A DNA stretch of 36,245 nt from contig JAZQBJ010000228.1 of NCBI GenBank assembly GCA_045545715.1, positions 1 to 36,245 on the forward strand, in the 5' to 3' direction. This DNA comes from Oscillospiraceae bacterium. GTDB lineage: Bacteria; Bacillota; Clostridia; Oscillospirales; Ruminococcaceae. Numbering within the stretch: position 1 is the stretch's first letter; every line of letters starts with the position of its first letter. A model generated the notes under the pieces. It was given only the letters and a program-made list of their open reading frames with translations, was not told the DNA's origin and made no database searches. Shown piece by piece: positions 1,391-35,523 of this stretch. The translations under genes and the position numbers were made by a program.

Positions 1391-1444
1391 TACATTCTTA
1401 CACAAAATGCTTTGCGGAATATTCTTTATCAATAAACCGCTAAC

Positions 1445-1618
1445 CAATGATAGCTCTCCACCGAAGTGACAGTCCAAAGGATATTTTCCCTTGGCCCAGC
1501 AAACGGAAAACAAGGCCTTTTTCCGAAAGCTTCGGCGAAAGTTCCTTTCTCACAAAACCGGGAGCCTTCCCTTAATCTGCTTTGCGTTACTGATAGCTTT
1601 CGCGCCTCTACCATTGTT
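1445..1618 (-). promoter_or_regulatory. lysine riboswitch (L-box) aptamer
   Basis: The minus strand reads GGTAGAGGCGCGAAAGCTATCAGTAACGC...AAGGGAAGG...TTCGCCGAAGC...GCTGGGCC...TTGGACTGTCACTTCGGTGGAGAGCTATC. The conserved L-box blocks AGAGGCGC, AGTA, GCCGAAG, CTGG, GGACTGTCA and TGGAGAGCTATC appear in the canonical order. Confidence 0.85.
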
Positions 1619-4205: not shown

Positions 4206-4331
4206 CCTCCCTTGGTCGGAACAAAGCCTGTGAAGCGCGTCCTGCGGACGATTCAGCGAACAGGGTTTGGCGCTGCGGTCAAAATATTCAAGGCGTTACG
4301 CCGCAGAATATTTTGGGCACCGCAAGAATGG
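4206..4331 (+). repeat. solo copy of a ~125-130 nt structured repeat; the second copy is at 32717-32845
   Basis: Aligns with 32717-32845. The 3' ~75 nt are near-identical (GGTTTGGCGC.GCGGTCAAAATATTCAAG..GTTA.GCCGCAGAATATTTTGGGCACCGCAAGA). There is a 10-bp perfect stem, CAAAATATTC (4280-4289) with GAATATTTTG (4306-4315), and a small hairpin with a compensatory change relative to the other copy. Confidence 0.8.
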
Positions 4332-6418: not shown

Positions 6419-6468
6419 TGTAGGGGCGGCTATTAGCCGCCCGCGGACGCATAATATGCGCTCCTACA
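6419..6468. repeat. REP/REPIN-like doublet of GTAG-headed hairpins
   Basis: TGTAGGGGCGGCTATTAGCCGCC...GACGCATAATATGCGCTCCTACA. The two inverted units are GTAGGGGCGG.. and GTAGGAGCGC.., both related to 29108-29129. Confidence 0.65.
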
Positions 6469-6489: not shown

Positions 6490-7173
6490 ATGTTTTCCGG
6501 CCTTAAAAAAGATATATATGCAGTCCGTGACCGCGACCCGGCGGCACCTTCCGCATTCAAAGTTTTTCTGCTGTATTCCGGCCTTCATGCAATAATGTGG
6601 CACCGGCCGGCCTATTGGCTCTGGCACCACGGTTTCAAATTCACCGCCCGTGCCCTTTCGCAGATAGTTCGTTTCTGCACCGGTGTTGAAATCCACCCGG
6701 CGGCAAAAATCGGCCGCGGAGTTCTTATCGACCACGGTTCCGGCGTTGTGATAGGCGAAACCGCCGAAGTCGGCGACAACTGCACAATTTATCAGGGCGT
6801 CACCCTTGGCGGTACCGGAAAAGAAACCGGAAAGCGCCACCCGACCCTTATGAACAACGTCATTGTCGGCGCCGGCGCAAAAGTTCTCGGCCCTTTCACA
6901 GTCGGCGAAGGCGCAAAAATCGCCGCGAACGCCGTTGTCCTGAACGCTATTCCGGAATATTCGACCGCCGTGGGCGTTCCCGCAAGGGTTGTCCGCCAGC
7001 ACGGGAAAAAGGTTGTTCCCGCGGAAAAACTTGACCAGGTCCACATTCCCGACCCTGTTTCCCAGGAAATCTGCAAGCTCTATATGGAAATCGACCGCCT
7101 TAAAGCGGAACTTGCGGAAATAAAAAGCCTTCCCAGAGGGGAAGGTGGCATTTCCGAAGGAAATGACGGATGA
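6490..7173 (+). CDS. cysE: serine O-acetyltransferase
   Basis: 227 aa. Contains RDPAAPSAFKVFLLYSGLHAIMWHR, hexapeptide repeats and GVLIDHGSGVVIGETAEVGDNCTIYQGVTLGGTG. The last 15 codons and the stop codon lie inside the left arm of the DUF559 cassette. Confidence 0.95.
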   Translation: MFSGLKKDIYAVRDRDPAAPSAFKVFLLYSGLHAIMWHRPAYWLWHHGFKFTARALSQIVRFCTGVEIHPAAKIGRGVLIDHGSGVVIGETAEVGDNCTIYQGVTLGGTGKETGKRHPTLMNNVIVGAGAKVLGPFTVGEGAKIAANAVVLNAIPEYSTAVGVPARVVRQHGKKVVPAEKLDQVHIPDPVSQEICKLYMEIDRLKAELAEIKSLPRGEGGISEGNDG

Positions 7174-7594
7174 GGGATAGCGATGCCGAGAAATTTTGAA
7201 TCCAATTCAAATCTGTGCGATAAATCACGGGATTTACGCAGAAATATGACGCCGGAAGAAAAACACCTTTGGTATGATTTTTTAAAAACATATCCGGTAC
7301 AGTTCAACAGACAAAGAGTAATCGGTAACTATATAGTTGATTTTTATTGCAGAAAAGCAAACCTCGTAATTGAAATTGACGGGAAACAGCATTACATTCC
7401 CGACGGGTTAAGTTATGATTCGGAACGCACAGATTATCTTAGCAGTGTCGGAATTGAAGTTGTCCGTTTTTTGAATAAAGATATTAATGGAAATTTTGAA
7501 AATGTTTGCGCACACATTGACCTGGTCGTGAAACGCAGGTTGGGGTAATCCCTCATCCGCCCGCTTCGCGGCCACCTTCCCCTCCGGGAAGGCT
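7126..7594 (+). mobile_element. TIR-bounded DUF559 cassette, type 1, copy 1 (putative selfish or mobile unit)
   Basis: The left arm is 7126-7178 and the right arm 7548-7594. They are imperfect inverted repeats with the architecture H1 hairpin, TGGC, H2 hairpin, GGATGAGGGAT box. The same architecture occurs at 31128, 32715 and 35066. Confidence 0.6.
7183..7548 (+). CDS. DUF559 domain protein (Vsr-like / PD-(D/E)xK endonuclease fold)
   Basis: 121 aa. Contains LRRNMTPEEKHLWYDFLKTYPVQFNRQRVIGNYIVDFYCRKANLVIEIDGKQHY...VVRFLNKDI. The SD GAGGG lies 6 nt upstream of the ATG. Confidence 0.85.
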   Translation: MPRNFESNSNLCDKSRDLRRNMTPEEKHLWYDFLKTYPVQFNRQRVIGNYIVDFYCRKANLVIEIDGKQHYIPDGLSYDSERTDYLSSVGIEVVRFLNKDINGNFENVCAHIDLVVKRRLG

Positions 7595-26516: not shown

Positions 26517-26772
26517 AGGTTTCTCCTTTCAAATCGGCCTTCCACAAAAAGGAAGGTGCCCGCAAGGCAGGCGGAAGGGTTTTTGACTGTAATTATATAT
26601 ATAATATTGTAACATCTTTAGCATACCTTTTTCAATGCCGAATGTGTAGAAATAATTACAACATTTTATATTAAAATGACGAAAGCTCCTAATTTTTTTA
26701 CAAAACTGTCTTTAAATAAAACACATCCTGTGATATACTGTTTTTATATTCCACCACAGGAGGTTTTTTACT

Positions 26773-28950: not shown

Positions 28951-29046
28951 GGATGAGGGATTTTTATTGCGGCGGGAGTTGATGTTGGTTTCCACCCTTC
29001 TGTCTTTCGCCTTCGGCGAAATCCACCTCCCCTGATAGGGTAGGCT
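28951..29046 (+). repeat. ORF-less relic of a type-1 DUF559 cassette (inner left box plus right-arm-like end)
   Basis: GGATGAGGGAT (28951-28961) is identical to 7168-7178. About 45 nt later comes CGCCTTCGGCG and then CCACCTCCCCTGATAGGGTAGGCT, which parallels the right arm CCACCTTCCCCTCCGGGAAGGCT. Confidence 0.55.
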
Positions 29047-29052
29047 TTTTTC

Positions 29053-29129
29053 GGGCGAACACATAGGTTCGCCCCTACGGAGACGGAATTAATATCGGTG
29101 TGTTATGGTAGGGGCGGATATTATCCGCC
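29053..29129. repeat. REP/REPIN-like inverted pair of GTAG-headed hairpins
   Basis: GGGCGAACACATAGGTTCGCCCCTAC (29053-29078, reverse orientation) and GTAGGGGCGGATATTATCCGCC (29108-29129). A related hairpin, GGCGGATATATCCGCC, is at 28918-28933. Confidence 0.65.
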
Positions 29130-29151
29130 TGTTATTCGTGGAACAGGGTCG

Positions 29152-29215
29152 ACAATTCCTCAGTCAGCTTCGCTGCCAGCTCCCTTTACACAAGGGAGCC
29201 TGCCCTCCGGGAAAG
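29152..29215 (+). repeat. solo relic resembling the right arm of the type-2 DUF559 cassette
   Basis: AATTCCTCAGTCAGCTTCGCTGCCAGCTCCCTTTACACAAGGGAGCC compares with GAATCCCTCCGTCAGCCTTCGGCTGACACCTCCCTTTAGGCAAGGGAGGC at 33231-33280. Confidence 0.55.
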
Positions 29216-29288
29216 AATTTTTTAAAATTTCCTTATGATATTATAAAAAATATTTGATATCTATATTAAAGGGTGGTAAAATATAAAC

Positions 29289-29322: not shown

Positions 29323-31128
29323 ATGCCGAATGAGAACATAAGAAACTTTTGTATAATCGCACATATCGACCACGGCAAATCCACCCTTGCCGACAGAATC
29401 CTTGAAAACACCGAAGCCGTCACTCCCCGCGAAATGGAAGAACAGCTTCTGGATAATATGGACATTGAACGTGAACGCGGAATCACCATAAAATCCCGCG
29501 CTGTCCGTCTTGATTATAAAGCCGACGACGGAAACAACTATGTCTTCAACCTTATCGATACCCCCGGACACGTTGACTTCAACTATGAAGTTTCCCGTTC
29601 TCTTGCCGCCTGCGAGGGAGCTGTTCTTATTGTTGACGCTTCCCAGGGAGTTGAGGCACAGACTCTTGCAAACACATATCTTGCGGTTGACCACAACCTT
29701 GAAATCGTTCCGGTAATCAACAAAATCGACCTTCCCGCGGCAGACCCGGACAGAGTTGCCCATGAGATCGAGGATATCATCGGAATTCCCGCTCTTGATG
29801 CGCCGCAGATTTCCGCAAAGACCGGCGTTAACATACATTCCGTTCTTGAAGCGATCGTCGAGGGAATTCCCGCTCCGGAAGGAAACGACGAAGCTCCGCT
29901 CAAGGCGCTTATCTTCGACTCCATTTATGACAGCTACCGCGGAGTAATCGTTTACGTCCGCGTTGTTGACGGCGAACTCCATTCCGGCGACAGAATCAGA
30001 ATGATGGCGACCGGCGCGGAATTTGACGTTGTTGAAGTCGGTTATATGGGCGCAACAAGGCTTGTTCCCAGCGGAGTTCTCAAGGCCGGCGAAGTCGGCT
30101 ACATCACCGCTTCCATCAAAACCGTTGCGGATACCGCAGTCGGCGACACCGTTACCCTTGCGGAAAATCCCACCGACGAACCTCTTGCAGGTTACAAAAA
30201 GGTCAATCCGATGGTTTATGCGGGTATTTATCCCCTCGACGGCGCAAAATACGGCGACCTTCGCGAAGCTCTTGAAAAACTTATCCTCAACGACGCTTCT
30301 CTCAGCTTTGAGCCGGAAACTTCCGCCGCTCTCGGTTTCGGTTTCCGCTGCGGATTCCTCGGACTTCTTCATATGGAAGTTATCCTCGAGCGTCTTGAAA
30401 GAGAATATAACCTCGACCTCATAACCACCGCGCCCAGCGTTGTTTATAAACTTCACCTCACCGACGGACGCACCCTTGAACTTGACAACCCGACCAACTA
30501 TCCCGACCCGGCTATTATTGATTCCACCGAAGAACCCTACGTCCGGGCTTCCATCTTTACTCCCACCCAATATATCGGAAGCATTATGGAGCTTTGTCAG
30601 GAACGCCGCGGAATTTATAAAGATACCAAATATCTTGAGGCAGACCGCTGTGAAGTTCACTATGAACTCCCCCTCGGCGAAATTATCTATGACTTTTTCG
30701 ATGCTCTCAAGAGCCGAACCAGAGGTTACGCCTCCTTCGACTATGAACCCTGCGGATATAAAGCCAGCAAGCTTGTTAAACTCGACATTCTTCTCAACGG
30801 AGAAATGGTCGACGCCCTTTCCATGATGGTTTTCGCAGATAACGCCTATCCCAGAGCGAGAAGAATGGTCGAAAGACTCCGCGACAACATCAGCCGCCAG
30901 CTTTTCGAAGTTCCGGTCCAGGCGGCCATCGGCGGAAAGATCATCGCCCGCGAAACCATAAAAGCCCTCCGCAAGGACGTTCTTGCAAAATGTTACGGCG
31001 GCGATATTTCCCGAAAGAAAAAACTTCTTGAAAAACAGAAGGAAGGTAAAAAGAAAATGCGCCGCATTGGTTCCGTCGAGCTTCCGAAGGAAGCATTCAT
31101 GGCGGTGCTCAAGCTGGACGATGACTAA
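29323..31128 (+). CDS. lepA: translation elongation factor 4
   Basis: 601 aa. [36 protein letters not shown], and the LepA C-terminal domain. Confidence 0.97.
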
Positions 31129-31600
31129 GCCTTCCCAGAGGGGAAGGTGGCACAGCCGGCGGCTGTGACGAAAGAGGGATAACAATGCCAAGGATTTATA
31201 AAGCAAATGAAGATCTGCGCAATAATTCCCATGAACTCCGAAAGAATATGACGCCGCAGGAAAAGCATTTGTGGTATGATTTTCTGAATTCATACGAAAT
31301 TTCCTTCAGACGTCAAGTTGTTATTAGAAATTACATCGTTGATTTCTATTGCAGAAAGGCAAAACTTGCCGTTGAAATTGACGGTACCCAACATTACACT
31401 TCCGAATCAATACAATACGATAAAGAACGTACGGAATATCTTGAAAGTTGCGGAATAATGGTTCTTCGTTTTTTAAACAAAGACATTGACCGTAATTTTG
31501 AAAATTCCTGCGCTTATATTGACCTAAATGTGAAACAAAGGCTTGGGTAAAATCCCTCTTCCGCCTCGTTTCACTCGGCACCTTCCCCTCTGGGAAGGCT
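31128..31600 (+). mobile_element. TIR-bounded DUF559 cassette, type 1, copy 2
   Basis: The left arm (31128-31180) is AGCCTTCCCAGAGGGGAAGGTGGCACAGCCGGCGGCTGTGACGAAAGAGGGAT. The right arm (31552-31600) is ATCCCTCTTCCGCC...GGCACCTTCCCCTCTGGGAAGGCT. The first base of the left arm is the last A of the lepA TAA. Confidence 0.6.
31185..31550 (+). CDS. DUF559 domain protein (Vsr-like / PD-(D/E)xK fold)
   Basis: 121 aa. LRKNMTPQEKHLWYDFLNSYEISFRRQVVIRNYIVDFYCRKAKLAVEIDGTQHY...VLRFLNKDI. It is collinear with 7183-7548. Confidence 0.85.
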   Translation: MPRIYKANEDLRNNSHELRKNMTPQEKHLWYDFLNSYEISFRRQVVIRNYIVDFYCRKAKLAVEIDGTQHYTSESIQYDKERTEYLESCGIMVLRFLNKDIDRNFENSCAYIDLNVKQRLG

Positions 31601-31710
31601 TATTATAAAATAAATTTTCTTTTTATTAATTAAAAAGAAGGTTTTTTGCAAAATTCGGTGTATATAGTATATGTAAGACAAAATTTTTTCAAAAAAGGAG
31701 GCGGCAGAAG

Positions 31711-32709
31711 ATGAATATCCGCGAAATTACAGAAAAACTTGAGCGCGAAACCCTTTCGCCAATGGCGACCCTTTCCGCAGAAACAAAAGGCAGACTTTTT
31801 CCTCTTGAATCCGACGGGATAAGAACCGATTTTCAGCGGGACAGGGACAGAATCATCCACTGCAAGGCTTTTCGCCGCCTTATGCATAAAACCCAGGTTT
31901 TCCTCAGCCCGGAAGGCGACCATTACCGCACCCGTCTCACCCATACTCTTGAAGTTGCACAGATTGCAAGAACAATGGCGGTTGCCCTCCGCCTTAACGA
32001 AAACCTGACCGAGGCGATAGCCCTCGGGCACGACCTTGGGCACACCCCTTTCGGTCACGCAGGCGAAAGAGCTCTTAACGAAGTTGCTCCCGGCGGTTTC
32101 CGCCATTATGAACAGAGCCTTCGCGTTGTTGATATCCTTGAAAGGGACGGAAACGGTCTTAACCTTACTTATGAAGTAAGGGACGGAATCGTTTGTCACA
32201 CCAAAGGAAAAGAAGCGGACACCCCGGAAGGAAAACTTGTTAAGCTGGCGGACCATTTTGCCTATGCTCACCACGATTATGAGGACGCAGTCCGCGCAGG
32301 AGTTCTTACCGAAGAAGCCGTCCCGGCAGAAGTTAGGGAAATCCTCGGAAACGGCGCAACACCGCGCCTTGCAAAAATGATAACCTCCGTTATCGAAAAT
32401 TCCGACGGCGACATAAAAATGGCTCCGGAAGTTGCCGCAGCAAGCAAGCTTCTTGAAGAATTCATGTTCTCCGCGGTTTACACAAACCCGGTTGCAAAAT
32501 CCCAGGAGCACAAGGCGGAAGCTCTTGTTAAAGCGCTTTATGAATTCTTCCTTGAAAACGCAAACGCCCTTCCCTCTGAATATCAGGCGATCGCAATGCG
32601 CGACGGGCTCGACAGAGCGGTTTGCGATTACATCAGCGGAATGAGCGACCGCTACGCCATTAAACTCTATAACGATTTCTTTGTTCCCAAAGGCTGGAGC
32701 AGGGAATAA
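31711..32709 (+). CDS. dgt: dGTP triphosphohydrolase-like HD-domain protein
   Basis: 332 aa. FQRDRDRIIHCKAFRRLMHKTQVF, RLTHTLEVAQIARTMA, GHDLGHTPFGHAGE. It lies upstream of dnaG, as in many Firmicutes. Confidence 0.9.
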   Translation: MNIREITEKLERETLSPMATLSAETKGRLFPLESDGIRTDFQRDRDRIIHCKAFRRLMHKTQVFLSPEGDHYRTRLTHTLEVAQIARTMAVALRLNENLTEAIALGHDLGHTPFGHAGERALNEVAPGGFRHYEQSLRVVDILERDGNGLNLTYEVRDGIVCHTKGKEADTPEGKLVKLADHFAYAHHDYEDAVRAGVLTEEAVPAEVREILGNGATPRLAKMITSVIENSDGDIKMAPEVAAASKLLEEFMFSAVYTNPVAKSQEHKAEALVKALYEFFLENANALPSEYQAIAMRDGLDRAVCDYISGMSDRYAIKLYNDFFVPKGWSRE

Positions 32710-32716
32710 AAGGAAG

Positions 32717-32845
32717 CCTCCCTTGCCTAAAGAGCAAAGCTTGCGAAGCGCGCCCAGTGGGCGAAACAGCGAGCAAGGTTTGGCGCCGCGGTCAAAATAT
32801 TCAAGATGTTATGCCGCAGAATATTTTGGGCACCGCAAGAGTTGG
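32717..32845 (+). repeat. second copy of the ~125-130 nt structured repeat (see 4206-4331)
   Basis: The alignment to 4206-4331 is described there. Stem: 32793-32802 with 32819-32828. Hairpin: CGCCC-agt-GGGCG at 32751-32763. Confidence 0.8.
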
Positions 32846-32885
32846 GTGGCATTTCCGTAAGGAAATGACGGAGGGATTCTTTTTT

Positions 32886-33269
32886 ATGGAAAGGAAACAT
32901 AATCCAAAGCTTACGGAAAATGCAAAAGAACTTCGGAAAAATATGACCAAAGAAGAAAAACATCTTTGGTACGATTTTTTGAAAGGATATCCCGTCCGTT
33001 TTCTTCGCCAGAAAATAATCGATGATTACATTGCCGATTTTTATTGCCACAGAGCAAGGCTTGTAATTGAACTTGACGGAAGTCAGCATTATACAAAGGA
33101 CGGACTTTTGAAAGACAAAATCCGGACAGAAAGAATTGAAAAACGTAATTTGACCGTTTTTAGAATTCCGAACGGTGAAATAAATCATAATTTCGAGGGA
33201 ATCTGCAGATTCATTGATGAATTTGTGCAGGAATCCCTCCGTCAGCCTTCGGCTGACACCTCCCTTTAG
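32886..33269 (+). CDS. DUF559 domain protein, type 2
   Basis: 127 aa from ATG 32886 (SD GGAGGG, 9-nt spacing). LRKNMTKEEKHLWYDFLKGYPVRFLRQKIIDDYIADFYCHRARLVIELDGSQHY...VFRIPNGEI. The track ORF start at 32757 runs through the arm and repeat. Confidence 0.85.
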   Translation: MERKHNPKLTENAKELRKNMTKEEKHLWYDFLKGYPVRFLRQKIIDDYIADFYCHRARLVIELDGSQHYTKDGLLKDKIRTERIEKRNLTVFRIPNGEINHNFEGICRFIDEFVQESLRQPSADTSL

Positions 33270-33306
33270 GCAAGGGAGGCTTATATCCCGGAAAGGAGGA
33301 GGACCC

Positions 33307-35065: not shown

Positions 35066-35523
35066 AGCCTCCCTTGCCTAAAGGGAGGTGGCATTTCCGT
35101 AAGGAAATGACGGAGGGATTCTTTTTTATGGAAAGGAAACATAATCCAAAGCTTACGGAAAATGCAAAGGAACTTCGGAAAAATATGACCAAAGAAGAAA
35201 AACACCTTTGGTACGATTTTTTGAAGGATTATCCCGAACGTTTTTTGCGGCAAAAGGTAATTGACGATTATATTGCTGATTTTTATTGCCACAAAGCAAG
35301 GCTTGTAATCGAACTTGACGGAAGTCAGCATTATACAAAGGACGGACTTTTGAAAGACAAAATCCGGACAGAAAGAATTGAGAAACGTGATTTGACCGTT
35401 TTGAGAATTCCACACGGTGAGATAAATCATAATTTTGAGGGAATCTGCAGATTCATCGATGAATTTGTGCAGGAATCCCTCCGTCAGCCTTCGGCTGACA
35501 CCTCCCTTTAGGCAAGGGAGGCT
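35066..35523 (+). mobile_element. TIR-bounded DUF559 cassette, type 2, copy 2 (compact form)
   Basis: The left arm (35066-35121) is AGCCTCCCTTGCCTAAAGGGAGGTGGCATTTCCGTAAGGAAATGACGGAGGGATTC. The reverse complement of the right arm (35473-35523) is AGCCTCCCTTGCCTAAAGGGAGGTGTCAGCCGAAGGCTGACGGAGGGATTC. Confidence 0.6.
35128..35511 (+). CDS. DUF559 domain protein, type 2
   Basis: 127 aa. By manual alignment it differs from the 32886-33269 product at 7 residues. Confidence 0.85.
   Translation: MERKHNPKLTENAKELRKNMTKEEKHLWYDFLKDYPERFLRQKVIDDYIADFYCHKARLVIELDGSQHYTKDGLLKDKIRTERIEKRDLTVLRIPHGEINHNFEGICRFIDEFVQESLRQPSADTSL

Follow-up and report, generated by a model that had tools for sequence, protein, structure and literature searches.

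A DUF559 nuclease cassette with structured inverted arms downstream of lepA in an Oscillospiraceae genome: a candidate selfish element

Architecture of the cassette locus

The window analyzed here is a 36,245-nt stretch of the genome of an Oscillospiraceae bacterium (assembly GCA_045545715.1, contig JAZQBJ010000228.1, positions 1 to 36,245 of the forward strand). It carries four cassettes encoding a DUF559 nuclease, two of type 1 and two of type 2, with one of the four in each of cysE|cysS, lepA|dgt, dgt|dnaG and dnaG|rpoD. The subject of this study is copy 2, a type-1 cassette that follows the stop codon of lepA and holds a single open reading frame (ORF) between two structured arms (Table 1). 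The left arm is composed of an outer hairpin (H1), whose purine strand is termed R1, a short spacer, an inner hairpin (H2) and a second purine block (R2). The findings below suggest that cassettes of this kind may be selfish mobile elements.

Table 1. Coordinates of lepA, the parts of cassette copy 2, and the other cassettes and solo arms of the window
Feature	Position	Strand	Remark
lepA	29323..31128	+	601-aa ORF; TAA at 31126-31128 abuts the cassette
Whole candidate mobile unit, type-1 DUF559 cassette, copy 2	31129..31601	+	473 nt, ends by homology
Left arm H1: CCTTCCC, loop AGAG, purine block R1 GGGAAGG	31130..31147	+	fold of single-stranded DNA
Left-arm spacer TGG	31148-31150	+	between H1 and H2
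Left arm H2: CACAGCC-GGC-GGCTGTG	31151..31167	+	covariation across arms
Left arm R2 block ACGAAAGAGGGA	31168..31179	+	degenerate mirror of R1; also the Shine-Dalgarno (SD) sequence, ATG 5 nt further on; base-pairs with 31553-31563 in the predicted RNA fold
DUF559 / Vsr-like PD-(D/E)XK nuclease gene, 121 aa	31185..31550	+	PF04480 match
Right arm inner block TCCCTCTTCCG	31553..31563	+	reverse complement of an R2 block; anti-SD
Right arm H2 position, degenerate CCTCGTTTCACTCGGC	31564..31579	+	weak fold
Right arm H1: CCTTCCC-CTCT-GGGAAGG	31581..31598	+	loop is the reverse complement of the left loop
T/A-rich tail	31599..31625	+	with right H1 scores intrinsic-terminator-like
Copy 1, type 1, between cysE and cysS	7127..7594	+	orthologous filled site in L003
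Copy 1, H1	7128-7145		
Copy 1, H2	7149-7165		
Copy 1, ORF	7183-7548		
Copy 1, right H2	7561-7571		
Copy 1, right H1	7575-7592		
Copy 3, type 2, between the dgt-like gene and dnaG	32715..33281	+	ORF 32886-33269
Copy 4, type 2, between dnaG and rpoD	35066..35523	+	ORF 35128-35511
Solo arm, third type, upstream of lepA	29150..29200	-	GCTCCCTTGTGTAAAGGGAGC-TGG-CAGCGAAGCTG-ACTGAGGA
Solo arm-like element	26538..26580	+	CCTTCC-ACAAAAA-GGAAGG, TGCCCGCAAGGCA, GGCGGAAGGG

The arms of copy 2 are inverted over ~50 nt, and the outer 24 nt form a perfect inverted repeat (31126-31149 / 31579-31602) that includes the TAA. Because the loops of the left and right H1 are reverse complements of each other, the arms are true terminal inverted repeats and no target duplication. 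The motif CCTTCCCN4GGGAAGG occurred four times in the window compared with 0.01 expected; the left-arm H1 reads GCCTTCCC-AGAG-GGGAAGG. As single-stranded DNA, the left arm folds with -15.5 kcal/mol (z -5.5). In the right arm, GCCGAGTGAAACGAGGC gives a stem of only 3 bp, and the DNA fold is weaker (-9.1 kcal/mol, z -2.9). This degenerate form of the right H2 is kept among type-1 units, being alike in L001, L002 and L201.

The sequence-only reading that preceded this analysis had begun the left arm at the final A of the lepA TAA, and its coordinates were right: with the unit ends set by homology to a copy at another locus, the arm begins either at the final base of the stop codon or at the nucleotide that follows it. 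The identity of H1 between copies 1 and 2 (CCTTCCC-AGAG-GGGAAGG) was also confirmed, and the ORFs, judged by eye to be roughly 60% identical, were 64% identical in protein and ~69% in DNA. Both H2 sequences (CACAGCC-GGC-GGCTGTG in copy 2, CATTTCC-GAA-GGAAATG in copy 1) and their retained pairing were correctly given, but the statement that nearly every stem position had changed was too strong: three of the seven pairs differ, at positions 3-5, and all three are compensated. Nor does the right arm of copy 2 have a clean H2.

The cassette protein belongs to the DUF559 family

The 121-aa ORF matched PF04480 with 107 bits (E = 5.5e-31; cut-off 20.6). The catalytic core pattern D ... ExD ... QH was present, and D53, E64, D66, Q69, H70, R82 and R95 were invariant in 28 diverged members, including Escherichia coli YcjD. 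The fold was placed by matches to the nearest solved structures, PDB 3HRL, a DUF559 protein (3e-24 with a profile), and PDB 3R3P, the catalytic domain of I-Bth0305I, a homing endonuclease of a group I intron (E = 0.03 with the single sequence, 3.4e-4 with a profile). In the PD-(D/E)XK catalogue, VSR, DUF559 and DUF2726 form one clade with 1cw0, 3hrl and 3r3p (PMC3424549).

The NCBIfam model PRK09767 (YcjD equivalog) gave 78 bits against a cut-off of 218, which indicates the same family and not a YcjD orthologue. Phage homing-endonuclease PHROGs were matched weakly (2e-8 to 5e-7), and weak similarity to methyl-directed restriction enzymes and DpdF nuclease domains was also found. The matching PHROG and PADLOC profiles have 266-607 positions, and the match was confined to the nuclease part. 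The 109-position DUF559 model covers the protein almost fully; as judged from its sequence, there is no room for a separate DNA-binding domain. An exact-protein look-up showed that the window's own DUF559 protein is not on record.

Structured arms accompany DUF559 genes

A scan of species-representative genomes confirmed at least 596 relatives of the protein, and the best 80 loci were fetched. These were mostly from Oscillospiraceae, Acutalibacteraceae and other Clostridia, together with Negativicutes, Gastranaerophilales and a few others. The arm analyses took in 84-164 arms from about 80 genomes. At the best 80 loci, the flanks on both sides consisted of H1, a spacer of 1-4 nt, H2 and a G-block. 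A strict arm scan detected 195 arms in 1.38 Mb compared with two in block-shuffled sequence; 161 of the 195 lay in DUF559 loci and four in 120 unrelated lepA-pattern loci (L081-L200). At least one strict arm was located at 82 of 103 DUF559 genes or fragments, and arm type tracked protein type. Eighty-four strict arms were solo (ORF-less), often as doublets or tandems. Tandem direct arms and solo-arm clusters were seen within a few hundred bases of a cassette at L006:2900-3000, L010:2900-3000, L013, L019, L021 and L026; tandem and clustered arms suggest that arms may multiply on their own.

A perfect hairpin of at least 5 bp stood directly after H1 in 62% of the H1-defined arms (n = 134) compared with 1.9% of shuffles, and 49 distinct H2 stems were found among 99. 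Because MAFFT gave an arm alignment (A1) of inconsistent structure, a hairpin-parsed, N-padded alignment (A2) was used instead; pairing in A2 is 100% by construction, so that only covariation measures are informative. Changes on both sides were found in 16 of 18 pairs (84 arms), with 410 double-change cells compared with 117 ± 14 in shuffles, none of 500 shuffles reaching 410. The covariation score was 0.66, compared with 0.20 for shuffled and 0.09-0.15 for slid arms. This strong covariation of H1 and H2 bore out the earlier proposal that the hairpins are under selection; the outcome named there as refuting, a lack of covarying pairs, was not observed. The window cassette had no match in Rfam 15 at the gathering score, and the sensitive mode gave chance-level results only (E > 0.3).

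The loops of H2 (n = 99) were mostly of the GNA type (GAA 35, GTA 11, GCA 7), and the closing pair was C:G in 88 of the 99. C-GNA-G minihairpins are reportedly unusually stable in DNA, as described by Hirao, Yoshizawa and colleagues in the 1990s. In most families, the R2 block is a mirror of the R1 purine strand, neither a copy nor a complement, and it co-varies with R1 across families: R1 AAGGGAGG is accompanied by R2 GGAGGGA(T), GGGAGAGG by GGAGAGGG, AAGGAGGG by GGGAGGA(T), and GAGGGGGC by (T)GGGGGAG. The mirror match of R1 to its own R2 averaged 0.83; the corresponding values were 0.68 when families were crossed and 0.70 when R2 was scored as a direct copy. Moreover, 100 of 164 arms had an own mirror match of at least 0.85 compared with 12% across families. 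Taken as sequence features, the H2 loops and the mirror R2 point to a function at the level of DNA rather than RNA.

The sequence-only reading had further proposed that insertion is site- or context-specific, directly 3′ of the stop codons of highly conserved genes. As a tendency this stands, with ~12 independent left arms located 1-9 nt past the stop of a co-directional ORF, but it is no rule: more than 20 left arms lie 15-350 nt away, and in three independent cases (four listed, two of them orthologous) an ORF runs 40-56 nt into the arm. The precise post-stop placement said to be preserved in both copies already fails in copy 1, where cysE (6490-7173) lacks a stop codon ahead of the cassette, continues for 46 nt within the left arm and ends there at a TGA. 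Its last 15 codons come from the arm, and the same was observed in the orthologue L003. The upstream neighbor was co-directional in 50 cases and divergent in 29. A better-supported context is the position of an H1-type hairpin or terminator in intergenic DNA, at junctions re-used by different cassettes.

Alternative sites, empty alleles and re-used junctions

Between its dnaG and rpoD, L201 has a unit (L201:2445-2917) that was 92.6% identical to 31129-31601 over exactly 473 nt; the flanks of the L201 unit were 82% and 90% identical to the window. The unit was present between dnaG and rpoD in L201-L210, and its protein (P0003, 92% identical) had the dnaG/rpoD context in each of the 10 places listed from 24 contigs read. 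Contigs from runs X3, X14 and X25 contained the same dnaG/rpoD junctions. In the X25 strain, the dnaG end matches the window over the ~27 nt read, yet a type-1 unit is found where the window has type 2. The view that copies 1 and 2 are old paralogues with no recent duplication holds for that pair but missed recent mobility, as seen in the 92.6% identical copy elsewhere and in empty alleles.

An empty lepA/dgt allele was found in a 463-nt contig of run X5, which matches 31030-31135 (1 mismatch in 106 nt) and 31608-31943 (5 in 336 nt). The halves are joined by ACTCTGGGAAGGCTGTTTTGC and read lepA-TAA-GCCTTCC-ACTCT-GGGAAGGC, so that one H1 hairpin replaces the cassette; TGTTTTGC follows the hairpin. 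The X5 strain is ~99% identical to the window. An empty dgt/dnaG allele was found in a contig of run X1, which joins 32729 to 33272 through a single hairpin, AGCCTCCCTT-GCCTA-AAGGGAGGCT. The solo hairpin sequences were TAAGCCTTCCACTCTGGGAAGGCTGTTTTGC and AGCCTCCCTTGCCTAAAGGGAGGCT. At the same junction, a more distant contig had no insert at all, and an X25 contig had an ORF-less left arm joined to a right H1. The lepA-dgt synteny was kept without a cassette in L171 and L092, which are more distant. The lepA/dgt cassette is common to the window and L002, the closest GTDB relative, with 84% identity in DNA (LepA, 95% identical). Since the cassette is shared with L002 and the X5 strain is ~99% identical to the window, the bare hairpin of X5 is most simply read as a loss, which would have occurred by H1 × H1 recombination.

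Both junctions have held different contents. The lepA/dgt junction carries type 1 in the window, L211/L212 and L002, a bare hairpin in X5, and a gene resembling REP-associated tyrosine transposases (RAYTs; REP, repetitive extragenic palindrome) in X25/X26. The dgt/dnaG junction carries type 2 in the window, a RAYT-like gene in L201 and a third cassette type in L002 (4537-5030), the latter with arms ACCTCCCC-TTGA-GGGGAGGT and a protein 60% identical to that of copy 2.

No target-site duplication was detected, as the flanks of eight insertions contained no direct repeat. Two other origins of the H1 pair were considered. A direct duplication of a palindromic target was ruled out by the reverse-complementary loops, and a pre-existing site-specific hairpin is unlikely to be the sole source of both H1s, because type-1 and type-2 H1s share the dnaG/rpoD junction in close strains. 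A tblastn search of the plasmid collection with copy 4 (E <= 1e-15) returned no match and thus no sign of plasmid carriage.

A model of homing-like spread

We favor, at a probability of about 0.55, the interpretation of copy 2 as a selfish, nuclease-encoding cassette that spreads through homing-like repair where its arms fold. This interpretation draws on observed properties, namely the sharp ends, alternative sites and empty alleles, the lack of duplication, the association of arms with the gene, the covariation and the intact active site. The DUF559 nuclease would recognize the arm, whether folded or as a duplex, or else a solo hairpin, and would nick or cut there. Host recombination and repair would then copy the cassette into related hairpins or arms by homing-like gene conversion, with the arms as homology, and H1 × H1 recombination would delete the cassette and leave a terminator-like hairpin. 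The gene would probably be transcribed by read-through from the upstream gene, lepA, and the arms may pair in the mRNA as a panhandle that buries the ribosome-binding site (RBS) and keeps the nuclease level low.

Several points weigh against homing-like spread. We know of no cleavage activity or site for any short DUF559 protein, and the 121-aa protein is devoid of the extra DNA-binding region of I-Bth0305I-type enzymes. Filled sites retain two H1 copies, with no evident protection from their own nuclease, and an arm homology of ~50 nt would be short for RecA-dependent repair. The right H2 of copy 2 is degenerate. The empty alleles are single short, low-depth metagenome contigs and equally fit a nuclease-free loss by slippage. 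Finally, the type-1 arms, to which those of copy 2 belong, have a mirror score of 0.68 and fit the mirror rule only with a bulge, so the triplex reading of the arms discussed below is weaker for copy 2.

Expression and predicted RNA fold

The DUF559 gene appears to be promoterless, as no promoter-like site was seen in the left arm; a T-run is missing from the left H1, and lepA has no terminator ahead of the cassette. The right H1 with its tail scores as a site like an intrinsic terminator, whereas the left H1 does not. In the predicted RNA panhandle (z -8.7; copy 1, z -6.5), the SD sequence AGAGGGA is base-paired to TCCCTCT, which lies close to the 3′ end. Free-standing Vsr-like homing endonuclease genes bring RBS-sequestering hairpins, which may outlast the loss of the gene (PMC2677866), and the predicted panhandle resembles these hairpins. 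Metatranscriptome contigs cover part of the ORF (31204-31403), but not one of them crosses from lepA into the cassette; that the gene is expressed by read-through and silenced at translation is thus what we infer.

These features also fit an explanation in which the arms are mainly RNA devices, with terminator or stabilizer hairpins and a panhandle that silences a toxic nuclease, and in which the gene is inherited vertically or swapped occasionally by ordinary recombination and is no mobile element with DNA-level ends. The strong predicted panhandle burying the SD sequence, the precedent of the Vsr-like endonuclease genes, the terminator-like right H1 with its T-run and the solo H1 hairpins at terminator positions are in its favor, as is the retention of the lepA/dgt cassette since the split from L002. 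However, the symmetry of the arm grammar exists at the level of DNA and not in RNA: in the right arm, both the GNA loop and the G-blocks fall on the non-transcribed strand. In addition, right arms and solo arms retain R2 although no ORF there requires an SD sequence, and the mirror relation of R2 to R1 plays no part in RNA pairing. Purine-motif triplexes are reported not to form in RNA (PMC4666352). The sharp edges of the unit and its occurrence at other sites are likewise contrary to a purely RNA-level role, which we rate as the least probable of the explanations considered here.

RAYT-like genes and REP sequences at the same junctions

The RAYT-like gene that fills the dgt/dnaG junction in L201 (L201:112-642) encodes 176 aa with an HIH motif and matched Pfam Y1_Tnp with 26.4 bits (cut-off 23) and NCBIfam REP_Tyr_transpos with E = 1e-15, below the cut-off of that model. 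The same kind of gene is found at lepA/dgt in runs X25 and X26 (window 31131-31608), so that these genes occupy slots of DUF559 cassettes. This raises the alternative that the arms are REP-like repeats moved in trans, most plausibly by a RAYT-like Y1 transposase, with DUF559 as a passenger or partner, in the manner of a REPIN with cargo. The ORF-less arm doublets and tandems agree with this alternative, and the lack of target-site duplication would suit single-strand Y1 transposition. These genomes, however, have a separate classical REP, GTAG + GGGCGGATAnTATCCGCC, that is unlike the arms (window 29108-29129 and 6420-6441), and the RAYT-like genes have no flanking arms. A RAYT-like gene lies within 3 kb of a cassette only in L201-type loci and L038, whereas an arm is found beside 80% of DUF559 genes and its type follows the protein type. 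Movement by RAYT-like enzymes therefore seems unlikely.

The REPs at 29108-29129 and 6420-6441 have a GTAG head followed by a palindrome (GTAGGGGCGGATATTATCCGCC, GTAGGGGCGGCTATTAGCCGCC) with compensated changes and constitute a second, independent repeat system. A similar GTAG REP is located just upstream of the RAYT-like gene in L155.

Likeness to BoxC/PIT/TMECO repeats

The arms can be compared with the BoxC/PIT/TMECO repeats of E. coli and other bacteria, which are likewise intergenic. These repeats consist of a pyrimidine block, a loop, a purine block, a loop and a mirror purine block, an order seen in most arm families, although the type-1 arms fit it poorly. BoxC/PIT/TMECO repeats form a purine-motif intrastrand triplex in vitro, as shown by Holder et al., and mark unstable loci, often as inverted A+B pairs, and purine-motif triplexes cannot form in RNA (PMC4666352). 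These frequent inverted pairs of two subtypes at rearrangement-prone loci can be compared with the left and right arms. The second loop differs, being 3 nt in TMECO and ~20-25 nt with a hairpin (TGG-H2-AC) in the arms. Whereas the arms here flank a nuclease gene, the BoxC papers describe no associated mobility gene, and a 2015 survey never found one near BoxC/PIT repeats (PMC4666352). The TMECO consensus CCCTCNCCC-N3-6-GGGNGAGGG-N3-GGGNGAGGG had no match in the window.

At the E. coli K-12 ycjD locus (L213; NC_000913.3 1351150-1351830), the 8-kb region contains a single TMECO match, a canonical element that shares the strand of ycjD and is located 170 nt downstream of it, beside a partial duplicate of the ycjD 3′ end; ycjD has a 16-bp hairpin over its SD/start region. 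The chance of a TMECO so near ycjD is ~0.002 (23 TMECOs in 4.6 Mb), a value computed after the observation. Among 5426 complete E. coli genomes, 3377 carry the ycjD locus. A tendency of ycjD-positive E. coli to hold more near-identical TMECO copies came from a small sample with no phylogenetic control and was not used as evidence.

Tentatively, and with more doubt than attaches to the homing-like model, the DUF559 cassettes could be the autonomous members of an unrecognized class of bacterial mobile element, in which a minimal Vsr-like hydrolytic nuclease would act on ends folded into a hairpin plus purine-motif triplex, and BoxC/PIT/TMECO (in E. coli, with YcjD as the enzyme) could be their ORF-less derivatives.

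The proximity of ycjD to a TMECO also fits the alternative that DUF559 proteins are host-beneficial, structure-specific repair or defense nucleases flanked by their own substrates, the repeats being the selfish or structural part. Hairpin- or triplex-forming repeats, or foreign DNA, would be the substrates of such an enzyme, comparable to domesticated RAYTs flanked by REPs. Many diverged paralogues have kept the active site, four intact copies occur in 36 kb, and the weak similarity to methyl-directed restriction enzymes and DpdF nuclease domains and the rearrangement-prone BoxC/TMECO loci of E. coli (PMC4666352) point in the same direction. A single beneficial function nevertheless does not account for as many as four diverged copies within 36 kb that differ in the type of their arms from copy to copy, nor for presence or absence between ~99% identical strains or type replacement at one site. 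There was also no defense partner gene among the cassette neighbors. We regard a beneficial role as quite unlikely, and homing-like spread of a selfish cassette is preferred.

Comparison with known systems and significance

The Vsr-like (EDxHD) homing endonucleases, such as I-Bth0305I and the 'fractured gene' endonucleases, have the same nuclease fold and clade as the cassette protein (PMC3239194, PMC2677866). Their genes, like the proposed selfish cassette, are small selfish genes located between or inserted into conserved genes, with an upstream RBS-sequestering hairpin. Unlike these enzymes, the cassette protein consists of a ~120-aa catalytic domain only, and the cassette has symmetric ~50-nt inverted arms and many ORF-less arm copies. 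The cassette hosts are bacterial chromosomes, whereas Vsr-like homing endonucleases are found in phages, introns and inteins; target cleavage by the cassette protein is putative.

The REP/REPIN-RAYT systems share with the cassette short structured extragenic repeats (solo, doublet or tandem), the lack of target-site duplication, and a small nuclease-type gene between two inverted copies of its repeat. However, RAYT is an HUH Y1 transposase and the cassette enzyme a PD-(D/E)XK hydrolase; the arms have no REP GTAG/GTGG head and start with (A)GCC/GGC; and the cassette gene is multi-copy and diverged within a genome, whereas RAYT is usually single-copy. IS200/IS605 elements are also small, have subterminal hairpins recognized by shape and cause no target-site duplication, but their ends are asymmetric, in contrast to the symmetric inverted repeats of the cassette, which has no Y1 transposase or TnpB. 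Integron cassettes, which are expressed by read-through, as the present cassette probably is, resemble it in having a promoterless single ORF and a folded recombination site (attC) of variable sequence and conserved structure. They differ in that the present cassette has two arms instead of one attC, has no integrase or attI platform, and is dispersed through housekeeping operons. Unlike in DDE-type transposons with terminal inverted repeats or miniature inverted-repeat transposable elements (MITEs), no target-site duplication accompanies the inverted repeats of the cassette.

Taken singly, the parts of the proposed system are familiar, from the DUF559 fold and Vsr-like homing endonucleases to BoxC/PIT repeats and the REP-RAYT logic. 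A literature search found no paper connecting DUF559 with BoxC-like repeats. We rate the unit as a nuclease cassette of the free-standing kind that has structured inverted arms and derivatives resembling MITEs; the probability that it stands for a new element class and for the source of BoxC-type repeats is substantial.

To our knowledge, neither an origin nor an enzyme nor a role has been established for BoxC/PIT repeats since the 1990s. If the proposed link is true, a 30-year-old orphan repeat family would gain both an origin and an enzyme, and DUF559 is a very large family of unknown function. The link opens to direct test which substrates short DUF559 nucleases cleave, whether a mobile element can have ends made of non-B DNA (hairpin plus triplex), and why the repeats mark unstable loci. 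In addition, cassettes and arms break metagenome assemblies and falsely extend the N- and C-termini of housekeeping genes in gut Clostridia, and their recognition would improve annotation.

Other features of the window

Besides the four cassettes, the window holds at least three solo arms. Copy 4 is ~93% identical to copy 3. The 3′ half of the left H1 of copy 3 is interrupted by a nested 114-nt element (32731-32844). A second copy of this element, 86% identical and preceded by a similar CCTCCCTTG half-site, is located at 4219-4327. As L211/L212 (94% identical) have an intact copy-3 arm from which the 114 nt are absent, the element is a nested, polymorphic MITE-like insertion; metagenome depth over it was 5-10 times that of its flanks.

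In copy 1, the first loop base of H1 (7137, 7584) differs between the arms, with AGAG on the left and GGAG on the right in the window and the opposite arrangement in L003. From these sequences, the A/G swap hints at exchange or gene conversion between arms. False extensions made by arms include a TTG-start dnaG ORF at 33214, the SLRQPSADTSL tails of type-2 proteins and the triple repeated tail of P0116.

In four gut metagenome runs, the solo-arm/REP region at 29018-29276 had a contig depth of ~240-1300x, compared with ~10-90x for its neighbors. Contigs break at arm edges, and the repeats are very abundant in ruminant and gut communities, where they fragment assemblies. A lysine riboswitch (Rfam RF00168, 102.8 bits) was located at 1443-1618 (-); it is ordinary and unrelated to the cassettes.

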